Source: a virus (taxonomy: Duplodnaviria > Heunggongvirae > Uroviricota > Caudoviricetes). From it: a stretch of DNA of 8,823 nt. Below the pieces are notes generated by a model, which was not told the DNA's origin, searched no databases, and saw only the letters and a list, made by a program, of their open reading frames with translations. The stretch is taken from IMG/VR virus record IMGVR_UViG_2713896788_000033. The stretch is one strand, 5' to 3'. Shown piece after piece: positions 282-8,823 of this stretch. The stretch's first letter is position 1. Every line of letters starts with the position of its first letter. Both the position numbers and the translations under genes were made by a program.

Positions 282-881
282 ATGCGTAAATTATGTGCTG
301 TTATTTTGTCCGCAGTAGTCTGGCAGGTCGCCGCTGCTACGCCAGCGAGTGCAGCAGAACATCAGTCCACGCTGAGCGCGGGGTATCTCCATGCCTCGAC
401 GAACGTTCCCGGTAGTGATGATCTGAACGGGATTAACGTGAAATACCGTTATGAGTTTATGGACGCGCTGGGGCTGATTACGTCCTTCAGTTATGCCAAT
501 GCTGAGGATGAGCAAAAAACGCGCTACAGCGATACCCGCTGGCATGAAGATTCCGTGCGTAACCGCTGGTTCAGCGTGATGGCGGGGCCGTCTGTACGCG
601 TGAATGAATGGTTCAGCGCGTATGCGATGGCGGGTGTGGCTTACAGCCGTGTGTCGACTTTCTACGGGGATTATCTCCGCGTAACTGACAACAAGGGGAA
701 AACGCACGATGTGCTGACCGGAAGTGATGACGGTCGCCACAGCAACACGTCTCTGGCGTGGGGGGCTGGCGTGCAGTTTAACCCGACCGAATCCGTGACC
801 ATTGACCTTGCTTATGAAGGTTCCGGTAGTGGCGACTGGCGATCGGATGCATTTATTGTTGGTATCGGATACCGTTTCTGA
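282..881 (+). CDS. lom: Lom-family (Ail/PagC/OmpX-like) outer membrane beta-barrel protein, a lambdoid prophage moron
   Basis: 199-aa ORF with SD GAGAGG at 271-276. N-terminal signal peptide MRKLCAVILSAVVWQVAAATPASA|AE. Alternating aromatic/hydrophobic beta-strand pattern and C-terminal ...IVGIGYRF typical of small outer-membrane barrels. Position immediately after J matches lambda lom. Confidence 0.9.
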   Translation: MRKLCAVILSAVVWQVAAATPASAAEHQSTLSAGYLHASTNVPGSDDLNGINVKYRYEFMDALGLITSFSYANAEDEQKTRYSDTRWHEDSVRNRWFSVMAGPSVRVNEWFSAYAMAGVAYSRVSTFYGDYLRVTDNKGKTHDVLTGSDDGRHSNTSLAWGAGVQFNPTESVTIDLAYEGSGSGDWRSDAFIVGIGYRF

Positions 882-1349: not shown

Positions 1350-1381
1350 TTCTGATTAGCCAGGTAACACAGTGTTATGAC

Positions 1382-1409
1382 AGCCCGCCGGTTCAGGCGG
1401 GCTTTTTTG
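1382..1409 (+). terminator. Terminator-like hairpin immediately upstream of stf
   Basis: AGCCCGCC (1382-1389), loop GGTTCAG, GGCGGGCT (1397-1404), then TTTTTT (1404-1409). It ends about 10 bp before the stf SD and start. Confidence 0.5.
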
Positions 1410-1419
1410 TGGGGTGAAT

Positions 1420-4335
1420 ATGGCAGTAAAGATTTCAGGTGTACTGAAAGACGGCACAGGAAAACCGGTAGAGAACTGCACCATTCAACTGAAAGCCAGA
1501 CGTAACAGCGCCACGGTGGTGGTGAACACGGTGGCCTCTGAAAATCCGGATGAAGCCGGTCGTTACAGCATGGACGTTGAGTACGGTCAGTACAGCGTNA
1601 TTCTGTTGGTGGAAGGNTTCCCGCCGTCACATGCCGGGACCATCACCGTGTATGAAGATTCTCAACCCGGTACGCTGAATGATTTTCTTGGTGCCATGAC
1701 TGAGGATGATGTCCGTCCGGAGGCACTGCGCCGTTTTGAGCTGATGGTGGAAGAGGTGGCGCGTAACGCGTCCGCGGTGGCACAGAACACGGCAGCCGCG
1801 AAGAAGTCAGCCAGCGATGCCAGCACATCAGCCCGTGAGGCGGCAACCCATGCGACTGATGCTGCGGACTCAGCACGCGCAGCCAGCACGTCAGCCGGAC
1901 AGGCCGCGTCGTCGGCTCAGTCAGCGTCTTCCAGCGCAGGAACGGCATCAACAAAGGCTACTGAAGCATCAAAAAGTGCTGCCGCTGCAGAGTCCTCAAA
2001 AAGCGCGGCGGCTACCAGTGCCGGTGCGGCGAAAACGTCAGAAACGAATGCGGCAGTGTCACAACAATCAGCCGCCACTTCTGCATCCACCGCGACCACG
2101 AAAGCGTCAGAAGCTGCCTCCTCAGCCAGGGATGCGTCGGCTTCAAAAGAGGCGGCAAAATCATCAGAAACGAGCGCAGCCTCGAGCGCCAGTAGTGCAG
2201 CCTCCTCGGCAACGGCGGCAGGCAATTCCGCGAAGGCGGCCAAAACGTCTGAGACAAACGCTAAGTCCTCTGAAACGGCAGCAGAACAGAGTGCCTCCGC
2301 AGCAGCAGGCTCAAAAACAGCGGCTGCATTATCTGCCAGTGCCGCGTCAACAAGTGCCGGGCAGGCCTCAGCCAGTGCCACCGCCGCCGGAAAATCGGCA
2401 GAAAGTGCCGCATCGTCTGCTTCAACAGCCACAACGAAGGCTGGCGAAGCCACTGAACAGGCCAGCGCAGCAGCGAGTTCTGCTTCCGCAGCGAAGACAT
2501 CCGAAACGAACGCGAAAGCGTCGGAAACCAGCGCAGAATCCTCAAAAACGGCTGCCGCATCGTCAGCCAGTTCGGCGGCGTCATCGGCATCATCTGCGTC
2601 TGCTTCAAAAGATGAGGCGACCAGACAAGCGTCAGCAGCGAAGAGCAGCGCCACGACGGCATCCACGAAGGCGACAGAGGCAGCTGGTAGTGCGACGGCA
2701 GCAGCTCAGAGCAAAAGTACGGCGGAATCTGCAGCAACGCGCGCTGAGACAGCGGCAAAACGGGCAGAGGATATTGCATCCGCCGTGGCGCTTGAGGATG
2801 CGAGCACGACGAAAAAGGGGATAGTACAGCTCAGCAGTGCGACTAACAGCACTTCCGAGTCACTGGCGGCAACGCCAAAAGCCGTTAAGGCCGCGTATGA
2901 GCTGGCTAACGGGAAATACACCGCACAGGATGCAACGACAGCACAGAAAGGGATAGTTCAGCTTAGCAACGCGACCAACAGCACATCTGAAATGCTGGCG
3001 GCAACGCCAAAGTCGGTAAAGGCAGCCTATGACCTTGCTAACGGGAAATATACTGCTCAGGACGCTACGACAGCACAAAAAGGAATTGTCCAGCTCAGTA
3101 GTGCAACCAACAGCGCATCTGAAACGCTTGCCGCGACACCGAAAGCAGTGAAAGCAGCTAATGATAATGCGAATGGTCGGGTACCTTCTGCCCGTAAGGT
3201 GAATGGTAAGGCGCTTTCATCGGATATAACACTGACGCCGAAAGATATTGGTACGCTTAACTCAACAACAATGTCATTCAGCGGTGGTGCTGGTTGGTTC
3301 AAATTAGCAACGGTAACCATGCCACAGGCGAGTTCTGTTGTTTCAATTACGTTGATTGGTGGCGCGGGATTTAACGTGGGGTCACCTCAACAGGCAGGTA
3401 TATCTGAACTTGTTTTGCGTGCAGGTAATGGTAATCCGAAGGGGATTACTGGTGCTTTATGGCAGCGCACATCGACAGGGTTTACAAATTTTGCCTGGGT
3501 CAATACATCTGGTGATACTTACGATATTTACGTTGCAATCGGAAATTATGCGACTGGTGTAAATATTCAATGGGATTATACCAGTAATGCCAGCGTGACG
3601 ATTCATACGTCACCAGCATATTCTGCTAATAAGCCGGAAGGGTTAACGGACGGTACAGTTTATTCACTCTATACGCCATCAGAGCAGTTTTATCCGCCTG
3701 GCGCACCAATCCCGTGGCCATCAGATACCGTTCCGTCTGGCTATGCCCTGATGCAGGGGCAGACTTTTGACAAATCTGCATACCCGAAACTTGCAGCCGC
3801 TTATCCGTCAGGCGTGATCCCTGATATGCGTGGCTGGACGATTAAGGGCAAACCTGCCAGTGGTCGGGCCGTATTGTCTCAGGAACAGGACGGCATTAAA
3901 TCGCACACCCACAGCGCCAGCGCATCCAGTACGGATTTGGGGACGAAAACCACATCGTCGTTTGATTACGGCACTAAATCCACGAATAACACCGGGGCGC
4001 ACACGCACAGTGTGAGCGGTACAGCCGCAAGTGCCGGAAACCATACTCATAGTGTCACAGGCGCATCAGCAGTCAGCCAGTGGTCACAAAATGGGTCAGT
4101 ACATAAGGTAGTGTCTGCGGCCAGTGTGAATACAAGTGCTGCAGGAGCGCACACTCATAGTGTCAGCGGCACAGCTGCATCTGCAGGTGCTCACGCACAT
4201 ACTGTCGGTATTGGTGCTCATACGCACTCTGTTGCGATTGGCTCACATGGACACACCATCACCGTTAACGCTGCGGGTAACGCGGAAAACACTGTCAAAA
4301 ACATCGCATTTAACTACATTGTGAGGCTTGCATAA
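1420..4335 (+). CDS. stf: Side tail fibre protein (lambda Stf-like; distal part related to T4 gp37-type fibres)
   Basis: The track ORF starts at GTG 1414, but ATG 1420 preceded by GGGGTG is the likelier start. Conserved N-terminal domain [16 protein letters not shown]... Long Ala/Ser/Thr-rich low-complexity shaft. Three tandem 44-aa repeats [44 protein letters not shown]-terminal His-rich HxH repeats and terminal ...[22 protein letters not shown]. Contains ambiguous bases at 1599 and 1617. Stop TAA 4333-4335 overlaps the tfa start. Confidence 0.9.
2815..3210 (+). repeat. Three in-frame tandem repeats of 132 bp (44 aa) inside stf (phage tail fibre repeat)
   Basis: Repeat units begin at 2815, 2947 and 3079, a period of exactly 132 bp. 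Peptide units are [88 protein letters not shown] and [28 protein letters not shown]..., the third diverging after about 3160. Confidence 0.9.
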
Positions 4336-4916
4336 TGGCATTCAGAATGAGTGAACAACCACGGACCATAAAAATTTATAATCTGCTGACCGGAACTAAT
4401 GAATTTATTGGTGAAGGTGACGCATATATTCCGCCTCATACAGGTCTGCCAGCAAACAGTACCTATATTGCACCGCCAGATATTCCGGCTGGCTTCGTGG
4501 CTGTTTTCAACAGTGATGAGTCATCGTGGCATCTCGTTGAAGATCATCGGGGTAAAACGGTTTATGACGTGGCTTCCGGCGACGCGTTATTTATTTCTGA
4601 ACTCGGCTCATTACCGGAAAATGTTACCTGGTTATCGCCGGAAGGGGAGTTTCAGAAGTGGAACGGCACAGCCTGGGTGAAAGATGCAGAAGCAGAAAAA
4701 CTGTTCCGGATCCGGGAGGCGGAAGAAACAAAAAACAGCCTGATGCAGGTAGCCAGTGAGCATATTGCGCCACTTCAGGATGCTGTAGATCTGGAAATCG
4801 CAACGGAGGAAGAAGCCTCATTGCTGGAAGCCTGGAAAAAGTATCGGGTGTTGCTGAACCGTGTTGATACATCAACTGCACCTGATATTGAGTGGCCTGT
4901 AATACCTGAAGTTTAA
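4335..4916 (+). CDS. tfa: Tail fibre assembly protein (Tfa; chaperone for the Stf tip, T4 gp38-related C-terminal domain)
   Basis: 193-aa ORF whose ATG (4335-4337) overlaps the stf stop as TAATG, the classic stf-tfa coupling. Its C-terminal segment ...[37 protein letters not shown] is the conserved Tfa C-terminal domain and recurs in the fragment at 8577-8696. Confidence 0.85.
4754..4874 (+). repeat. Left copy of an approximately 120-bp direct repeat (tfa 3' end) bracketing the cargo
   Basis: Hand alignment of 4754-4874 against 8577-8696 gives about 13 mismatches in 120 bp with no indels (about 89% identity). Confidence 0.8.
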
Positions 4917-4921
4917 AATAA

Positions 4922-4947
4922 AAGCCCGCTTAAAATATCGCGGGCTT
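4922..4947. terminator. Hairpin between convergent tfa (+) and katN-like (-) genes; possible bidirectional terminator
   Basis: GCCCGC (4924-4929), 10-nt loop, GCGGGC (4940-4945). It is flanked by an A-run on the 5' side (4914-4922), which is a U-run for the minus-strand transcript, and only a short TT on the + side. Confidence 0.45.
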
Positions 4948-5035
4948 CGAAATATAAATGTATTTTCAGAGGCTAGAGCTTAGGATATCTCAGCGGCAAT
5001 TAACTTATGAGGGATAGCTAAATACCAGAAGATAA

Positions 5036-5926
5036 TTAGTTTTTACTATTTATCTTTGTTTGTGGTTCTCCTTCAGCAAGCTCAGCGCCAGTGACAGGAT
5101 TGATGTCTTCATGGGATTTCAACCTTGTTGCCATAGCTTTTATCATAGCTTCTTGCTTGGTCGAAAGATTTATCGAGGCCTTCCCATCCCCACCGTCAAC
5201 CGCTGAAACTGGATCGGAAACATAGTCAAAGTTTTCATCACTGTTCCAACTACCTCTGACGTCTTCACCTTCTGACATGTTGTAATATACGTTTTTGTAT
5301 TTCTCAAGTGGTGGTAATTTTCCTGGTGGAAAGGTGTTACGAATTGAATGTAATGCTTTTTCAAATGAAAGCATGTGTGCTGCTTCCCGGGTCATTAAAA
5401 ATGCCAGAGTGTCTTTTACTCCAGGATCATCAGTAACATTAATGAGACGTTCGTAAATGATCTTTGCCCGAGCTTCAGCTGCAATATTTGAACGAAGATC
5501 GGCCGTGACTTCGCCAATAGTATCAACATAAGCTGCAGTCCAGGGTACTCCAGCTGAATTAGTTAATGCTGGGCCTCCTCCGTAGAGGAGAGAAGTTATA
5601 TGGCTATCATTGCCATTTTGAGTTAAGGAACGGTAAAGCTCAGCTTCATTCTCAGTTCCTTCAGCAAGTGCTCCTTTTGCACCTTTGTTGAGCATACCAA
5701 CAAGAGAACCAATAATTTCGAGATGACTTAGTTCTTCTGTTGCTATGTCCATCAGCATATCCCTTCGGCCTGCATCTTCATCACTTAAGCCTTGAGTGAA
5801 GTATCGGCATGCTGCTGCAAGCTCACCCTGTGGCCCACCGAATTGTTCTAAGAGTAGATTAGCCAAGCCTGGGTTTGGCTCACTTACACGTACTGTATAT
5901 TGAAGTTTTTTCACGTGTCTAAACAT
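5036..5926 (-). CDS. katN: Manganese (non-haem) catalase, KatN-like
   Basis: 296-aa ORF with a strong SD (GAGGAGG, reverse complement of 5930-5936) 4 nt before the ATG. N-terminus MFRHVKKLQYTVRVSEPNPGLANLLLEQFGGPQGELAAACRYF and two ExxH motifs (TEELSHLE, TREAAHML) match the dimanganese-site signature of the Mn-catalase family. It is the last gene of a yciG-yciF-yciE-katN arrangement like the one known in Salmonella. Confidence 0.8.
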   Translation of the reverse strand: MFRHVKKLQYTVRVSEPNPGLANLLLEQFGGPQGELAAACRYFTQGLSDEDAGRRDMLMDIATEELSHLEIIGSLVGMLNKGAKGALAEGTENEAELYRSLTQNGNDSHITSLLYGGGPALTNSAGVPWTAAYVDTIGEVTADLRSNIAAEARAKIIYERLINVTDDPGVKDTLAFLMTREAAHMLSFEKALHSIRNTFPPGKLPPLEKYKNVYYNMSEGEDVRGSWNSDENFDYVSDPVSAVDGGDGKASINLSTKQEAMIKAMATRLKSHEDINPVTGAELAEGEPQTKINSKN

Positions 5927-5944
5927 AATGCCTCCTCAAAAGAA

Positions 5945-6451
5945 TTATTTTTTGGCTTCAACTCCATCAATTTCAGATCTGACCATGAATTGCTCAGTGG
6001 TGTCAGGAATATGGTTAAGAAGCCATTCAGCCATTTGTTTTTCTTCATTAAGAATTGCTTCAATAATGGGTACTGAAGCTGTATCACCCGCATTTTTGGC
6101 TGCTGCGAGAAGAGATGTGTAACACGCAATTTCAAATTGTTCGAACACATAGCCACTGATCGAACCTTTGACAATTTCATCAGATGGAAAAATTCCACCA
6201 ATGGATTGTCCAAACGCGGCCATTTTACTCATAGAGTCTTTAATGACAGAGCGCGAAATATTATTACGATCAAGTATGCTTTCAAGCTGTGAAAGCTGGT
6301 TCTTTGTTTCGCTAATGTGCTGCTCAATTCTGGAACGTAACTCAGGATAGTTTTCTATCCGGCTGGCCATAGACTCAAGCATTTTTTCAGCTTGTTTTTC
6401 CATCGCATGTGCATCACGAAGCCAGTCATGGTAATGTTCAATTCTATTCAT
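5945..6451 (-). CDS. yciE: DUF892 ferritin-like stress protein, YciE-like
   Basis: 168-aa ORF with SD AGGA upstream (reverse complement of about 6456-6462). N-terminus MNRIEHYHDWLRDAHAMEKQAEKML carries the DUF892 motif (D-x-[YH]-x-[AM]-E-K-Q). Gene order matches yciGFE. Confidence 0.8.
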   Translation of the reverse strand: MNRIEHYHDWLRDAHAMEKQAEKMLESMASRIENYPELRSRIEQHISETKNQLSQLESILDRNNISRSVIKDSMSKMAAFGQSIGGIFPSDEIVKGSISGYVFEQFEIACYTSLLAAAKNAGDTASVPIIEAILNEEKQMAEWLLNHIPDTTEQFMVRSEIDGVEAKK

Positions 6452-6487
6452 AATCTGTTTATCCTAAAAGAAATTGAAGTCTATAGT

Positions 6488-6988
6488 TCAGGAGTTATCC
6501 TGAGCTTTTTTATTAACGTTATTAAATGCCAGGTCTGTTAATTTGACATCAGTAGCTTTTTCCTCTTCCAGTGTTTCTTTCAGGAGTTTAGCCGCTTTTT
6601 TATATCCTAATTGCTCAGCGAGTGTTACCAAAGTGCCATAACTGGCAATTTCATAGTGCTCTACTTTTTGTGCTGCAGCAATCAATGCAGCATCACGTAC
6701 TTCATTTTTATCAGTGCTTTCAATTACCTCATTCGCCTCTTCGATAAGTCCTTCCATTGCGGCACACTTAATTCTTTTCAATTTAAGACCATCTTCAGAA
6801 TCAACAACCTGATCGATGCGTTCAATTTGACCATGTGTCTCATCAAGATGTGACTGAAAAGCAGCGGTTAATTTATCACTATATGCAGAGCGACTAAGTT
6901 TAGACAGTGCCTTTGTTAGTTGTTTCTCAGCGCTGTATGTATCCGATAATAAGTGGATGAAGATATCTTCAACAGATTTAATTTGCAT
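6488..6988 (-). CDS. yciF: DUF892 ferritin-like stress protein, YciF-like
   Basis: The track ORF starts at GTG 6994 (MIMQIK...), but ATG 6988 preceded by GGAG with a 5-nt spacer is the likelier start (MQIKSVEDIFIHLLSDTYSAEKQLTKAL...). It carries the DUF892 motif LSDTYSAEKQ and is a paralogue of the adjacent YciE-like gene. Confidence 0.8.
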   Translation of the reverse strand: MQIKSVEDIFIHLLSDTYSAEKQLTKALSKLSRSAYSDKLTAAFQSHLDETHGQIERIDQVVDSEDGLKLKRIKCAAMEGLIEEANEVIESTDKNEVRDAALIAAAQKVEHYEIASYGTLVTLAEQLGYKKAAKLLKETLEEEKATDVKLTDLAFNNVNKKAQDNS

Positions 6989-7006
6989 AATCACTCCAGA
7001 GTTTTC

Positions 7007-7030
7007 ACTGCGAGCCCGTAGGCTCGCAGT
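7007..7030 (-). promoter_or_regulatory. Perfect 10-bp stem / 4-nt loop hairpin in the yciG-yciF intercistronic region
   Basis: ACTGCGAGCC (7007-7016), loop CGTA, GGCTCGCAGT (7021-7030). No U-run follows on the transcribed (minus) strand, so it looks like an intra-operon processing or stability element or a partial attenuator, not a full terminator. Confidence 0.5.
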
Positions 7031-7066
7031 TAGCTTCAGTTATTCACGAATGTAGGGGGTGATAAA

Positions 7067-7249
7067 TTAAGAGTCAGATTTACGGCCGCCACCATGGCTA
7101 TTCTGACCACCTTTTTTCCCTGCTTCTGATGCTCTTTGTGGATCGTTTTTAAAATTACCGCCACTATGTTGGCCGCCTTTACGACCAGCGTCAGAAGCTT
7201 TTTGTCGATCTTCAGCGAAATTACCTGCACCGCCACGATGTTCGGTCAT
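7067..7249 (-). CDS. yciG: KGG-repeat general stress protein, YciG-like
   Basis: 60-aa Gly/Lys-rich ORF MTEHRGGAGNFAEDRQKASDAGRKGGQHSGGNFKNDPQRASEAGKKGGQNSHGGGRKSDS with two KGG-type repeats (GRKGGQHSGGNF, GKKGGQNSHGG). SD GAGGAGAA (reverse complement of 7255-7262) precedes the ATG. First gene of the operon. Confidence 0.75.
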   Translation of the reverse strand: MTEHRGGAGNFAEDRQKASDAGRKGGQHSGGNFKNDPQRASEAGKKGGQNSHGGGRKSDS

Positions 7250-7272
7250 ATCATTTCTCCTCTGATTTTCAA

Positions 7273-7299
7273 ATTGTAAATAACATGTGCCTTGTCAGC
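7273..7299 (-). promoter_or_regulatory. Candidate promoter for the yciG-like operon (minus strand)
   Basis: On the minus strand: -35-like CTGACA (reverse complement of 7294-7299), about 15 bp spacer, -10-like TACAAT (reverse complement of 7273-7278), about 25 nt upstream of the yciG ATG. The spacer is short, so a stationary-phase sigma-factor-type promoter with a degenerate -35 is plausible. Prediction by eye only. Confidence 0.3.
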
Positions 7300-7746
7300 A
7301 CCCAATTAACTCTAGTAACAAATAAGAAAGTGTCAAATAAGAGATTGGTATGCGCATCTTAATGTGAGAAATAGCAATTGTAAAAATGTGTACTCAGTGA
7401 GTATAATCTGTTGATATCTTGGTGATTAACGGAAAGTTTAGGTTGTAACTCAAAAGATTAATAAATCTAAATTTACATTTCTATATCTTTTGATGTGTAT
7501 GGCGTTGTTTTTCTCAATCAGAACATTCTAAAAAATAATTTAATTACACGGCGGTAGTTGTTAATGTTTTTACGACTCTTCCTAATGAAGTCTGTTTCTT
7601 GGATAAATAGAGAAATTTTATCTTAAGGACTAATTACAAAAACATCTATATAGCCACAGGAATCATTATTGTACTTAACTACAATATTTGAGAGTAAAAA
7701 TTAAACCGCAGACACGGCGTATGCAAGAACGTGCTGCGGTTGGATG

Positions 7747-8415
7747 CTATTTTTTCCCTGAAGCGGAAAACATTACTACAGTACCTTGAACCTTGGTTTT
7801 AACATTCTCGAAATGCTCTGAGAGTATATGTGTTAAGCCTTCTTCGGAATCTTTTGTGTTTGAAAAGATGCCTTTCTGATTGTAAATGCGCATCAGTTTT
7901 TGACCGAAGCTATTGTGCACAACTCCATCGCCAAGAATTGTGGCTCCGTATAGAGTTCCATCGTCAGTTAAGGCCTGCGCCGCATTGCGTATTACACAGC
8001 TTTTTGTAGATATATTTCCAGGCAGGCAGTGAAGAAGGTAAAACATGGAAATGGAATCAAATTGACCATGTAACGCCGCGGGATAAGGTTCAAAAACATC
8101 ATGGCTAATTTTATGTTTAATTTTTGATTCCCCAGCCCTTGTAGATGCCGCGTTCAGGCTAGCTTCGTTCAAATCCATTAAAGATATCAGACTACTCTCA
8201 GGTACGTGAGTAAGGTAAAACCCAGTTCCAACACCAATATCCAGATGGTTGTTACCTAAATGTTCCAGAAAGTGTGGAAGAAGGTGTTCCTTTGTAGGAC
8301 ATCCCCATGCAAGACGATTTGATACTCCCAAAACCCACCAGTCATAAAGCTTTAGGGTAAGTGGTGTGTAAATTTTAGCCCCATCATCTGTGTTTTTTTT
8401 CATTAATTTCACCAT
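7747..8415 (-). CDS. Class I SAM-dependent methyltransferase (orphan; target unknown)
   Basis: 222-aa ORF; the likelier start is the internal ATG (reverse complement of 8401-8403), which has a GGTGA SD, giving MKKNTDDGAK... Rossmann motif I HLDIGVGTGFYL (hh-D-h-G-x-G-x-G), an acidic residue after beta-2 (SLMDLNE) and a DDGTLY motif typical of small-molecule/RNA class I methyltransferases. From memory, a methyltransferase gene (ybcY) lies between two tfa genes in E. coli K-12 prophage DLP12; this arrangement is similar, but the homology is unverified. Confidence 0.6.
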   Translation of the reverse strand: MVKLMKKNTDDGAKIYTPLTLKLYDWWVLGVSNRLAWGCPTKEHLLPHFLEHLGNNHLDIGVGTGFYLTHVPESSLISLMDLNEASLNAASTRAGESKIKHKISHDVFEPYPAALHGQFDSISMFYLLHCLPGNISTKSCVIRNAAQALTDDGTLYGATILGDGVVHNSFGQKLMRIYNQKGIFSNTKDSEEGLTHILSEHFENVKTKVQGTVVMFSASGKK

Positions 8416-8471
8416 GTTATAGTTTTATTTGTGAATTAAATCAATTATGGCGATGAATTACAAGGGGTTAA

Positions 8472-8720
8472 ATGCTGCCGCAGCATAGCGATATTGAAAT
8501 AGCCTGGTATGCTGCGATACAGCAGGAGCCGAATGGCTGGAAGACCGTCACCACACAGTTCTACATCCAGGAATTCAGTGAGTATATTGCGCCACTGCAG
8601 GATGCTGTAGATCTGGAAATCGCAACGGAGGAAGAAAGATCGTTGCTGGAGGCATGGAATAAATATCGGGTATTGTTGAATCGTGTTGATACATCAGTAG
8701 CTCGTAAGCGTACAGCCTGA
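8472..8720 (+). pseudogene. 3' remnant of a second tail fibre assembly (tfa) gene
   Basis: 82-aa ORF whose C-terminal half ...[38 protein letters not shown] matches the C-terminal domain of the tfa at 4335-4916 (nucleotide similarity 8577-8696 versus 4754-4874). The N-terminal 35 residues show no similarity to the full Tfa and there is no convincing SD, so this is probably a recombination remnant whose ATG is fortuitous. Confidence 0.6.
8577..8696 (+). repeat. Right copy of the approximately 120-bp direct repeat (tfa 3' end)
   Basis: See the left copy: same orientation, same reading frame, similarity ends at ...GTTGATACATCA. Confidence 0.8.
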
Positions 8721-8823
8721 ACCGTCTGGTCAGAATCTGACGAATTAGACAAAGTGGTGCCCACCAAATAAGTAGTGGGAACCAAAGTATCAGATATGCA
8801 GAAAAATGTGACTCCCGGCAGGC

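Follow-up and report, generated by a model that had tools for sequence, protein, structure and literature searches.

The yciGFE-katN operon of Salmonella is reportedly sigma-S dependent and regulated by H-NS and YncC, going by the title of work by Beraud from 2010. A cassette of the same four genes is the subject of the present study; it lies in an 8,823-nucleotide stretch of tailed-phage DNA (IMG/VR record IMGVR_UViG_2713896788_000033), the whole of which is referred to here as the window. The system is already known, having been annotated by about 2007, reported to be RpoS dependent in 2009 and studied functionally in 2017. ECs1652, on prophage Sp8, was tabulated as a 'putative catalase' and was present in 8/8 tested O157 strains and in none of the O26, O111 and O103 enterohaemorrhagic Escherichia coli (EHEC) strains (Ogura 2007, PMC2323221). 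Z1922, Z1923 and Z1924, placed on 'prophage CP-933X', were found to be 35-, 64- and 137-fold RpoS-dependent in stationary phase (Dong & Schellhorn 2009, PMC2907692), and Z1921, on CP-933X as well, was named KatN and is 84% identical to Salmonella KatN (Wan 2017, PMC5363993). An earlier note on this DNA, made from the letters alone, was not aware of the cassette as described prophage cargo; these three papers, which place it on Sp8/CP-933X, correct that impression.

Hundreds of E. coli O157:H7 chromosomes match window positions 4800-8823 at 100% identity, and positions 1350-8823 are 99.97% identical to a single stretch of O157:H7 strain ATCC 35150 by pairwise blastn. The locus is securely identified as Z1921-Z1924/ECs1652 and neighbours on the O157:H7 prophage called Sp8 in Sakai and CP-933X in EDL933, since the published identity of Z1921 to Salmonella KatN was reproduced (84%) and katN is normally found in one copy per genome. 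It is very probably a horizontally acquired, self-contained yciG2-yciF2-yciE2-katN operon, carried as moron-type cargo by a lambda-like prophage, in its late 'b-region'. In what follows, the gene identities, junctions, second copy and distribution come from this analysis, regulation and phenotype come from the cited papers, and the promoter position is predicted.

The cassette and its borders

Four open reading frames in the same orientation are listed on the minus strand directly downstream of stf-tfa:

5036 to 5926, minus strand: katN, manganese catalase, 296 aa, equal to Z1921/ECs1652 (PF05067 Mn_catalase, E 7.9e-87)
5945 to 6451, minus strand: yciE paralogue, DUF892 ferritin-like, 168 aa, equal to Z1922 (PF05974, E 1e-50)
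6488 to 6988, minus strand: yciF paralogue, DUF892 ferritin-like, 166 aa, equal to Z1923 (PF05974, E 3e-54 for the reading frame 6488-6994)
7067 to 7249, minus strand: yciG paralogue, KGG-repeat general stress protein, 60 aa, equal to Z1924 (PF10685, E 1e-16)

The family match of KatN is full-length (residues 1-270, 291 bits against a PF05067 cut-off of 27), and its relatives in the PDB are Anabaena KatB (4R42/6J42, E 5e-47) and the Lactobacillus plantarum Mn catalase (1JKU, E 9e-35). When aligned with 1JKU, KatN residues E35, E65, H68, E151 and H184 fall on the E/E/H/E/H metal-ligand positions, within the motifs GE35L, E65ELSH68, AAE151A and TREAAH184. The di-manganese ligands of the L. plantarum enzyme, as described by Barynin et al. 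in 2001, are said to be Glu35, Glu66, His69, Glu148 and His181. The YciE and YciF paralogues match the E. coli YciE (3OGH, E 3e-97) and YciF (2GS4, E 1e-82) structures, and the likeliest start of the YciF paralogue is the ATG at 6988 (166 aa, the RefSeq start), not the GTG at 6994. The YciG paralogue has two KGG repeats and scores 61 bits against a cut-off of 20.4. Identity to the chromosomal E. coli paralogues is 88-93% for YciG (aligned part), 80% for YciF and 89% for YciE. The genes are separated by 78 bp (yciG2-yciF2), 36 bp (yciF2-yciE2) and 18 bp (yciE2-katN), and the order yciG-yciF-yciE-katN is that of the Salmonella operon and of many Enterobacter and Klebsiella loci. The earlier reading of these genes as a KGG protein, two DUF892 proteins and a Mn catalase forming a yciGFE-katN operon is borne out by the Pfam models (Mn_catalase, DUF892 twice and KGG all match), the PDB matches and the gene order.

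The same O157 genome holds the ordinary chromosomal trpA-yciG-yciF-yciE arrangement, which has no katN, lies 163 kb from the cassette and shares about 74% DNA identity with it. The cassette itself is found between the tfa and ybcY genes of the prophage and not at the trpA-ompW position. In Lambda_ev243 and PhiR26_1 (the record of the latter gives K-12 MG1655 as host) the module J-lom-stf-tfa-ybcY-tfa'-hydrolase-ompT is present without the cassette and is otherwise collinear, and the DLP12 remnant of K-12 reads tfaD-ybcY-tfaX-appY-ompT, again without it. Because a separate chromosomal yciGFE is present in the same genome and the flanks are contiguous in cassette-less phages, the cassette is genuine prophage cargo and a second copy beside the chromosomal yciGFE, as the earlier note had proposed.

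The borders of the acquired block and the elements within them are as follows:

4899 to 7699: cassette block, 2801 bp (blastn break points against cassette-less lambdoid phages)
4335 to 4916, plus strand: tfa, tail fibre assembly (Pfam Caudo_TAP, E 8e-45)
4912 to 4948, minus strand: predicted intrinsic terminator ending the operon, with a GC-rich 9-bp stem at 4921-4948 and then UUUUAUUUU
7250 to 7699, minus strand: AT-rich regulatory region, about 31% GC, 450 bp (from GC content)
7309 to 7336, minus strand: promoter-like site TTGACA-16 nt-TAGAGT (consensus scan, 10/12)

The block of 2801 bp stands in place of 29 bp between tfa and ybcY in PhiR26_1, ev243 and DLP12; window position 4898 corresponds to 5971, and 7700 to 6001, of comparison locus L006, with the same break points for L005 and DLP12 (L004). 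The final 18 nt of tfa (4899-4916) come from the inserted block and give the protein a C-terminus, …EWPVIPEV, that is unlike that of cassette-less phages in the PhiR26_1 and DLP12 alignment. Neither terminal inverted repeats nor flanking direct repeats or a target-site duplication were seen at 4899/7699, where only short chance repeats occur, and the block has no transposase or integrase gene. The predicted terminator overlaps the tfa stop codon, and its RNA fold of -16 kcal/mol (z -4.6) was equalled in stability by 0/200 shuffles.

Upstream of the operon, the promoter-like site lies about 60 nt from yciG2, with a C at -13 and TTAA after the -10; its -35 TTGAC and its CTA…TTAAT -10 region are conserved with the region upstream of chromosomal yciG, and it is presumed, from these motifs, to be the sigma-S promoter of the operon. 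The AT-rich region at 7250-7699 is a likely target of H-NS. A 22-nt palindrome-like inverted repeat, 82% complementary and without spacer, was also observed at 7450-7493, some 200-245 nt upstream of yciG2; a binding site for YncC/McbR or OxyR is one possibility, a chance occurrence in AT-rich DNA another.

The GC content is 39.1% in the cassette and 31.4% in the 7250-7746 spacer, against 54.7% in stf and 54.5% in lom, so the visibly AT-richer composition that the earlier note had pointed to was confirmed by measurement. The further step taken there, from AT-richness to a different source, carries little weight. The chromosomal E. coli yciGFE has 40.9% GC next to trpA and trpB at 54.5%, and the resident phage cargo ybcY, hydrolase and ompT has 41-43%; because these are equally AT-rich, low GC is not evidence of source, and its use as a mark of foreign origin was rejected. 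AT-richness accompanies H-NS control of the yciGFE(-katN) operon wherever the operon is present.

Regulation and function

Expression of katN is induced by both RpoS and OxyR, with repression by H-NS and a rise of more than 450-fold when hns is deleted, and the gene helps growth under oxidative stress and lowers reactive oxygen species (ROS) (PMC5363993). A working model in three parts can be held with considerable confidence. The operon would be transcribed from its own sigma-S promoter, opposite to the phage late genes, and would end at its own terminator; independence from late-gene transcription is expected because of this AT-rich promoter region and intrinsic terminator, and the published RpoS dependence in stationary phase fits it. 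H-NS would silence the operon in growing cells, and the silencing would be relieved or overridden by RpoS once stationary phase is reached and by OxyR when cells meet peroxide stress. The predicted products, a di-manganese catalase, two ferritin-like four-helix-bundle proteins and a small KGG protein, would give the lysogen haem-independent peroxide scavenging and probably metal-handling or protective functions, that is, peroxide and stationary-phase protection added to that of KatG, KatE, KatP and the chromosomal yciGFE. The suggestion of a lysogenic-conversion module that protects its lysogen stands, with a reservation: it agrees with the published RpoS-dependent expression and oxidative-stress growth, but Sp8 is defective and the cassette is its fixed cargo.

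A different view of the function is that KatN acts mainly as an effector delivered into macrophages by a type VI secretion system (T6SS), rather than as a cytoplasmic stationary-phase catalase. T6SS-dependent secretion, lower macrophage ROS and better survival inside macrophages have been reported (PMC5363993); however, nothing at the locus points to a T6SS, as neither the cassette nor its flanks contain a PAAR, VgrG, Hcp, adaptor or immunity gene, many Enterobacteriaceae carry the operon on the chromosome for sigma-S stress responses, and a katN deletion mutant was of wild-type virulence in a mouse model (PMC5363993). Secretion as the main role is therefore considered possible, with the balance tilting towards the stationary-phase catalase.

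Distribution and origin

Of 5426 complete E. coli genomes, 382 (7%) have katN, always on the chromosome (plasmids account for 0/390 places), and chromosomal yciGFE has a match in 5423. Sampled carriers are mostly O157:H7, the others coming from sources such as pig, baboon, guinea fowl, bat, bear and river water. It has been stated that katN is found in most pathogenic E. coli and not in non-pathogenic strains (PMC5363993); at 7% of complete genomes this published view looks overstated, and the impression of katN as typical for most pathogenic E. coli is corrected. The 450-bp upstream region is found in 382 genomes, the same number as katN. In 48 katN-positive genomes (e.g. H182-H185; L007, L091) it has diverged to 78-90% identity, with katN never below 95%; in those genomes divergence or exchange has gone much faster in the regulatory region than in the genes.

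Six contexts, non-O157 or variant, were inspected, and the cassette was found at the following chromosomal sites:

ycgX/iraM-minE region: O157 and O8:H8 strain 16F5M1D1
DLP12 site, beside envY-ybcH: PapM-36-2
thrW, in a degraded remnant: GF4-3 and wlxctx60
lambda attachment site, beside ybhB-bioA, with the cassette last before the chromosome: KKa014

In 6/6 of the inspected contexts the 3' end of tfa directly precedes the katN side of the block. The four sites and the constant tfa 3' end are as expected for a block that moves with lambdoid prophages and recombines within tfa, and the cassette appears to have spread among these prophages by recombination in tfa homology. Transfer by infectious phage is suggested by the same distribution; no phage able to transfer the cassette to a new host was found, and the presence at four integration sites is indirect support for such transfer. 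Two of the sites have features of their own. The GF4-3 and wlxctx60 variants adjoin a LysR regulator and a short-chain dehydrogenase/reductase (SDR) oxidoreductase at the thrW island, and in the river-water strain KKa014 (L090 3737-6487) a truncated stf precedes a tail fibre labelled 'pyocin knob domain-containing S74 family peptidase', with the cassette abutting the prophage end at ybhB-bioA and neither ybcY nor ompT present.

Outside E. coli, the nearest KatN is that of Kosakonia quasisacchari (87%), followed by Salmonella at the identity given above; for all four proteins jointly Salmonella and Enterobacter are closest (80-91%), and the best whole-operon DNA match is 73% (Salmonella). Enterobacterial chromosomes commonly carry the four-gene operon, in many Enterobacteriaceae away from trp and ompW. 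The cassette flanks at 4899-5035 and 7250-7699 show no similarity to 80 katN loci of other species, the likeness ending at the coding regions, and no remnant of ompW or trpA was detected in the flanks by tblastn (E up to 10). An Enterobacter ludwigii plasmid of 147 kb (unnamed2, CP195346.1; L042 4351-6864) carries yciG-yciF-yciE-katN with a KatN 80% identical, and outside E. coli the operon is on this account also mobile by non-phage routes.

Several points weigh against a phage-borne and advantageous acquisition and must be set beside the evidence above. The cassette was found in 0/50,697 deposited phage genomes, and the segment of tfa end and terminator was likewise unmatched there. Sakai Sp8 lacks CI/Cro and does not circularise or excise, replicate or undergo packaging (PMC2669165). 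Because of the absence from phage genomes and this defect, transfer by infectious phage is only inferred, and in the O157 lineage the cassette is fixed cargo of a defective prophage, not of an actively converting phage. The databases searched gave no donor above 87% KatN identity, and a fitness benefit in vivo is unproven because the katN mutant was wild-type in mice. Acquisition as self-contained prophage cargo is nonetheless the reading preferred here, at the strength given at the outset.

A more specific and tentative idea is that the cassette is a travelling module welded to the tfa 3' end, which hops among unrelated lambdoid prophages through homologous recombination in tfa and perhaps came from the aberrant excision of an ompW phage in a katN-positive enterobacterial lineage absent from the sequenced ones; if this were true, the shuffling of tail-fibre modules would also spread host stress operons. 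The origin part can be put as a proposal of its own, that a lambdoid prophage integrated in ompW of a katN-positive enterobacterium underwent aberrant excision of the specialised-transduction type, followed by recombination in tfa. The Salmonella order trpA-yciG-yciF-yciE-katN-ompW (L017/L018) is of the kind required, the ompW prophages of E. coli face yciE with their tail-fibre end first and convergently, as in the window, and the KKa014 cassette is the last element before attR. This origin is nevertheless improbable, as the flanks have neither an ompW or trpA remnant nor similarity to any of the 80 katN loci, no close donor exists (at most 87% at the amino acid and 73% at the nucleotide level), and the block is mostly internal to other cargo and not beside the attachment site (att).

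That the cassette is an autonomous mobile element (a transposon, an insertion sequence (IS) composite or an integron-like element) which jumped into the prophage is very unlikely. Its clean junctions with a 29-bp replacement, and the closeness of ISEc8 and IS1203 in O157, would fit such an event, but the block lacks transposase, integrase, terminal inverted repeats and target-site duplication, ISEc8 is missing from non-O157 carriers, none of the 390 places is on a plasmid, and the tfa 3' end is always on the katN side. The last possibility, that this is the ordinary chromosomal yciGFE beside an unrelated phage remnant, has next to no chance of being right: a lambdoid prophage in ompW of O157 does adjoin yciE, and a short window might show such an arrangement, but the chromosomal yciGFE is a separate place in the same genome at about 74% DNA identity, phage DNA that is contiguous in cassette-less phages lies on both sides of the cassette, and the cassette occupies four different chromosomal sites. 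The earlier note had itself raised this arrangement as what would undo its proposal, and the separate locus and the phage break points refute it.

Prophage surroundings and comparison with known systems

In ATCC 35150 the cassette-bearing prophage arm has lambda-like morphogenesis genes (portal, protease, capsid, tail genes, tape measure, J, lom, stf and tfa), and 3' of tfa are found the four-gene cassette, a methyltransferase, a tfa remnant, ISEc8, an alpha/beta hydrolase and ompT; beyond ompT come additional elements and then the backbone genes minEDC. Further features of the window are:

282 to 881, plus strand: lom (Ail/Lom, Pfam)
about 1420 to 4335, plus strand: stf, side tail fibre (Pfam phage_tail_N, Phage_fiber_2, Collar)
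7747 to 8415, minus strand: ybcY-type class I S-adenosylmethionine (SAM) methyltransferase (Methyltransf_12/23/25, best E 3.8e-09 for Methyltransf_12)
8472 to 8720, plus strand: tfa C-terminal remnant, tfaX-like, annotated as a pseudogene (partial Caudo_TAP, E 4e-18)

Because the break points fall at 4898/4899 and 7699/7700, the methyltransferase and the tfa remnant are resident phage DNA (ybcY, tfaX) outside the acquisition. The ybcY DNA is 99% identical in phages PhiR26_1, ev243, 2G7b and Turner and 97% identical in DLP12 ybcY, and the tfaX-like remnant has the same arrangement in DLP12, ev243 and PhiR26_1. The pair at window 7747-8720 corresponds to 10153-11061 of L004 (DLP12) and to 6047-7077 of L005 and L006. 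The gene ybcY is a pseudogene in K-12 and is intact here and in the infectious lambdoid phages PhiR26_1, ev243, 2G7b and Turner. The ompT gene is usually regarded as a DLP12 gene; since hydrolase and ompT come after ybcY-tfa' in the live lambdoid phage family, it is regular cargo of that family.

Near the chromosomal yciGFE of ATCC 35150 (L002 24967-26781, L003 15486-16177) a lambdoid prophage is integrated in ompW and directly adjoins yciE. It carries paa, nleA, nleH1-2, nleF, espM1 and nleG, leaves an ompW fragment beside yciE with an intact ompW at its int end, and its tail-fibre end is convergent with yciGFE, which is the relative orientation of the cassette to stf-tfa.

The 5' part of the window requires a separate reading. 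Positions 1-1299 (J 3' end, lom and an stf N-terminal fragment) are just 86-89% identical to the cassette-bearing prophage and 100% identical to another prophage, about 400 kb off and on the opposite strand, in strain FORC_044. A run of 50 N lies at 1300-1349, with single N calls at 1599 and 1617. Because 1-1299 matches a different prophage about 400 kb away, the N-run is taken as a scaffold join; by these matches, positions 1-1299 are judged not to be contiguous with the remainder, the scaffold being chimeric and joined within the repeated stf 5' region. The doubling of the stf N-terminus (1033-1299 and from 1420 on) arose in the assembly and is not biological. The cassette-bearing prophage has its own J-lom-stf-tfa, so the phage context stands despite the chimeric 1-1299.

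In comparing the cassette to lambdoid morons, such as lom and bor of lambda, sodC of Gifsy-2 and O157 prophages, and ybcY/ompT of the DLP12 type, the position between tail genes and att is shared, as are a GC content lower than that of the structural genes, expression from the prophage and absence from close relatives with sharp junctions; a promoter and a terminator of its own are predicted for the cassette. Unlike single-gene morons, the cassette is a four-gene operon that duplicates a host stress operon, and no infectious carrier phage has been deposited. The chromosomal yciGFE of E. coli (K-12 b1259-b1257) has paralogous YciG, YciF and YciE, similar AT-richness and a conserved core promoter motif; it differs in lacking katN, in its DNA identity of about 74% and in being present in essentially all E. 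coli, against 382 genomes for the cassette. The Salmonella enterica yciGFE-katN operon is alike in its four genes, their order and orientation, with proteins 80-88% identical, and control by RpoS and H-NS has been reported both for it and for the O157 cassette; however, the Salmonella operon is chromosomal, between trpA and ompW, and the cassette is inside a lambdoid prophage, with about 73% DNA identity and both flanks unrelated.

A temperate phage is seen here to carry a whole host-type sigma-S stress operon, including a non-haem catalase otherwise missing in E. coli, into a pathogen lineage, and the locus, a proposed aid to macrophage survival, is conserved across the sampled O157:H7 genomes. 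With respect to the Z1921-Z1924/ECs1652 locus, the window is the same locus and biologically shows no difference, the only distinction being its origin in a draft scaffold that has an N-run and, upstream of stf, a chimeric join. As the locus, its prophage location and its regulation were already published, the value of the comparison is confirmatory and its additions are incremental: exact junctions, confirmation of the second copy, the distribution, four integration contexts and the caveat on GC content, with the boundaries of the known O157:H7 cassette now exact.

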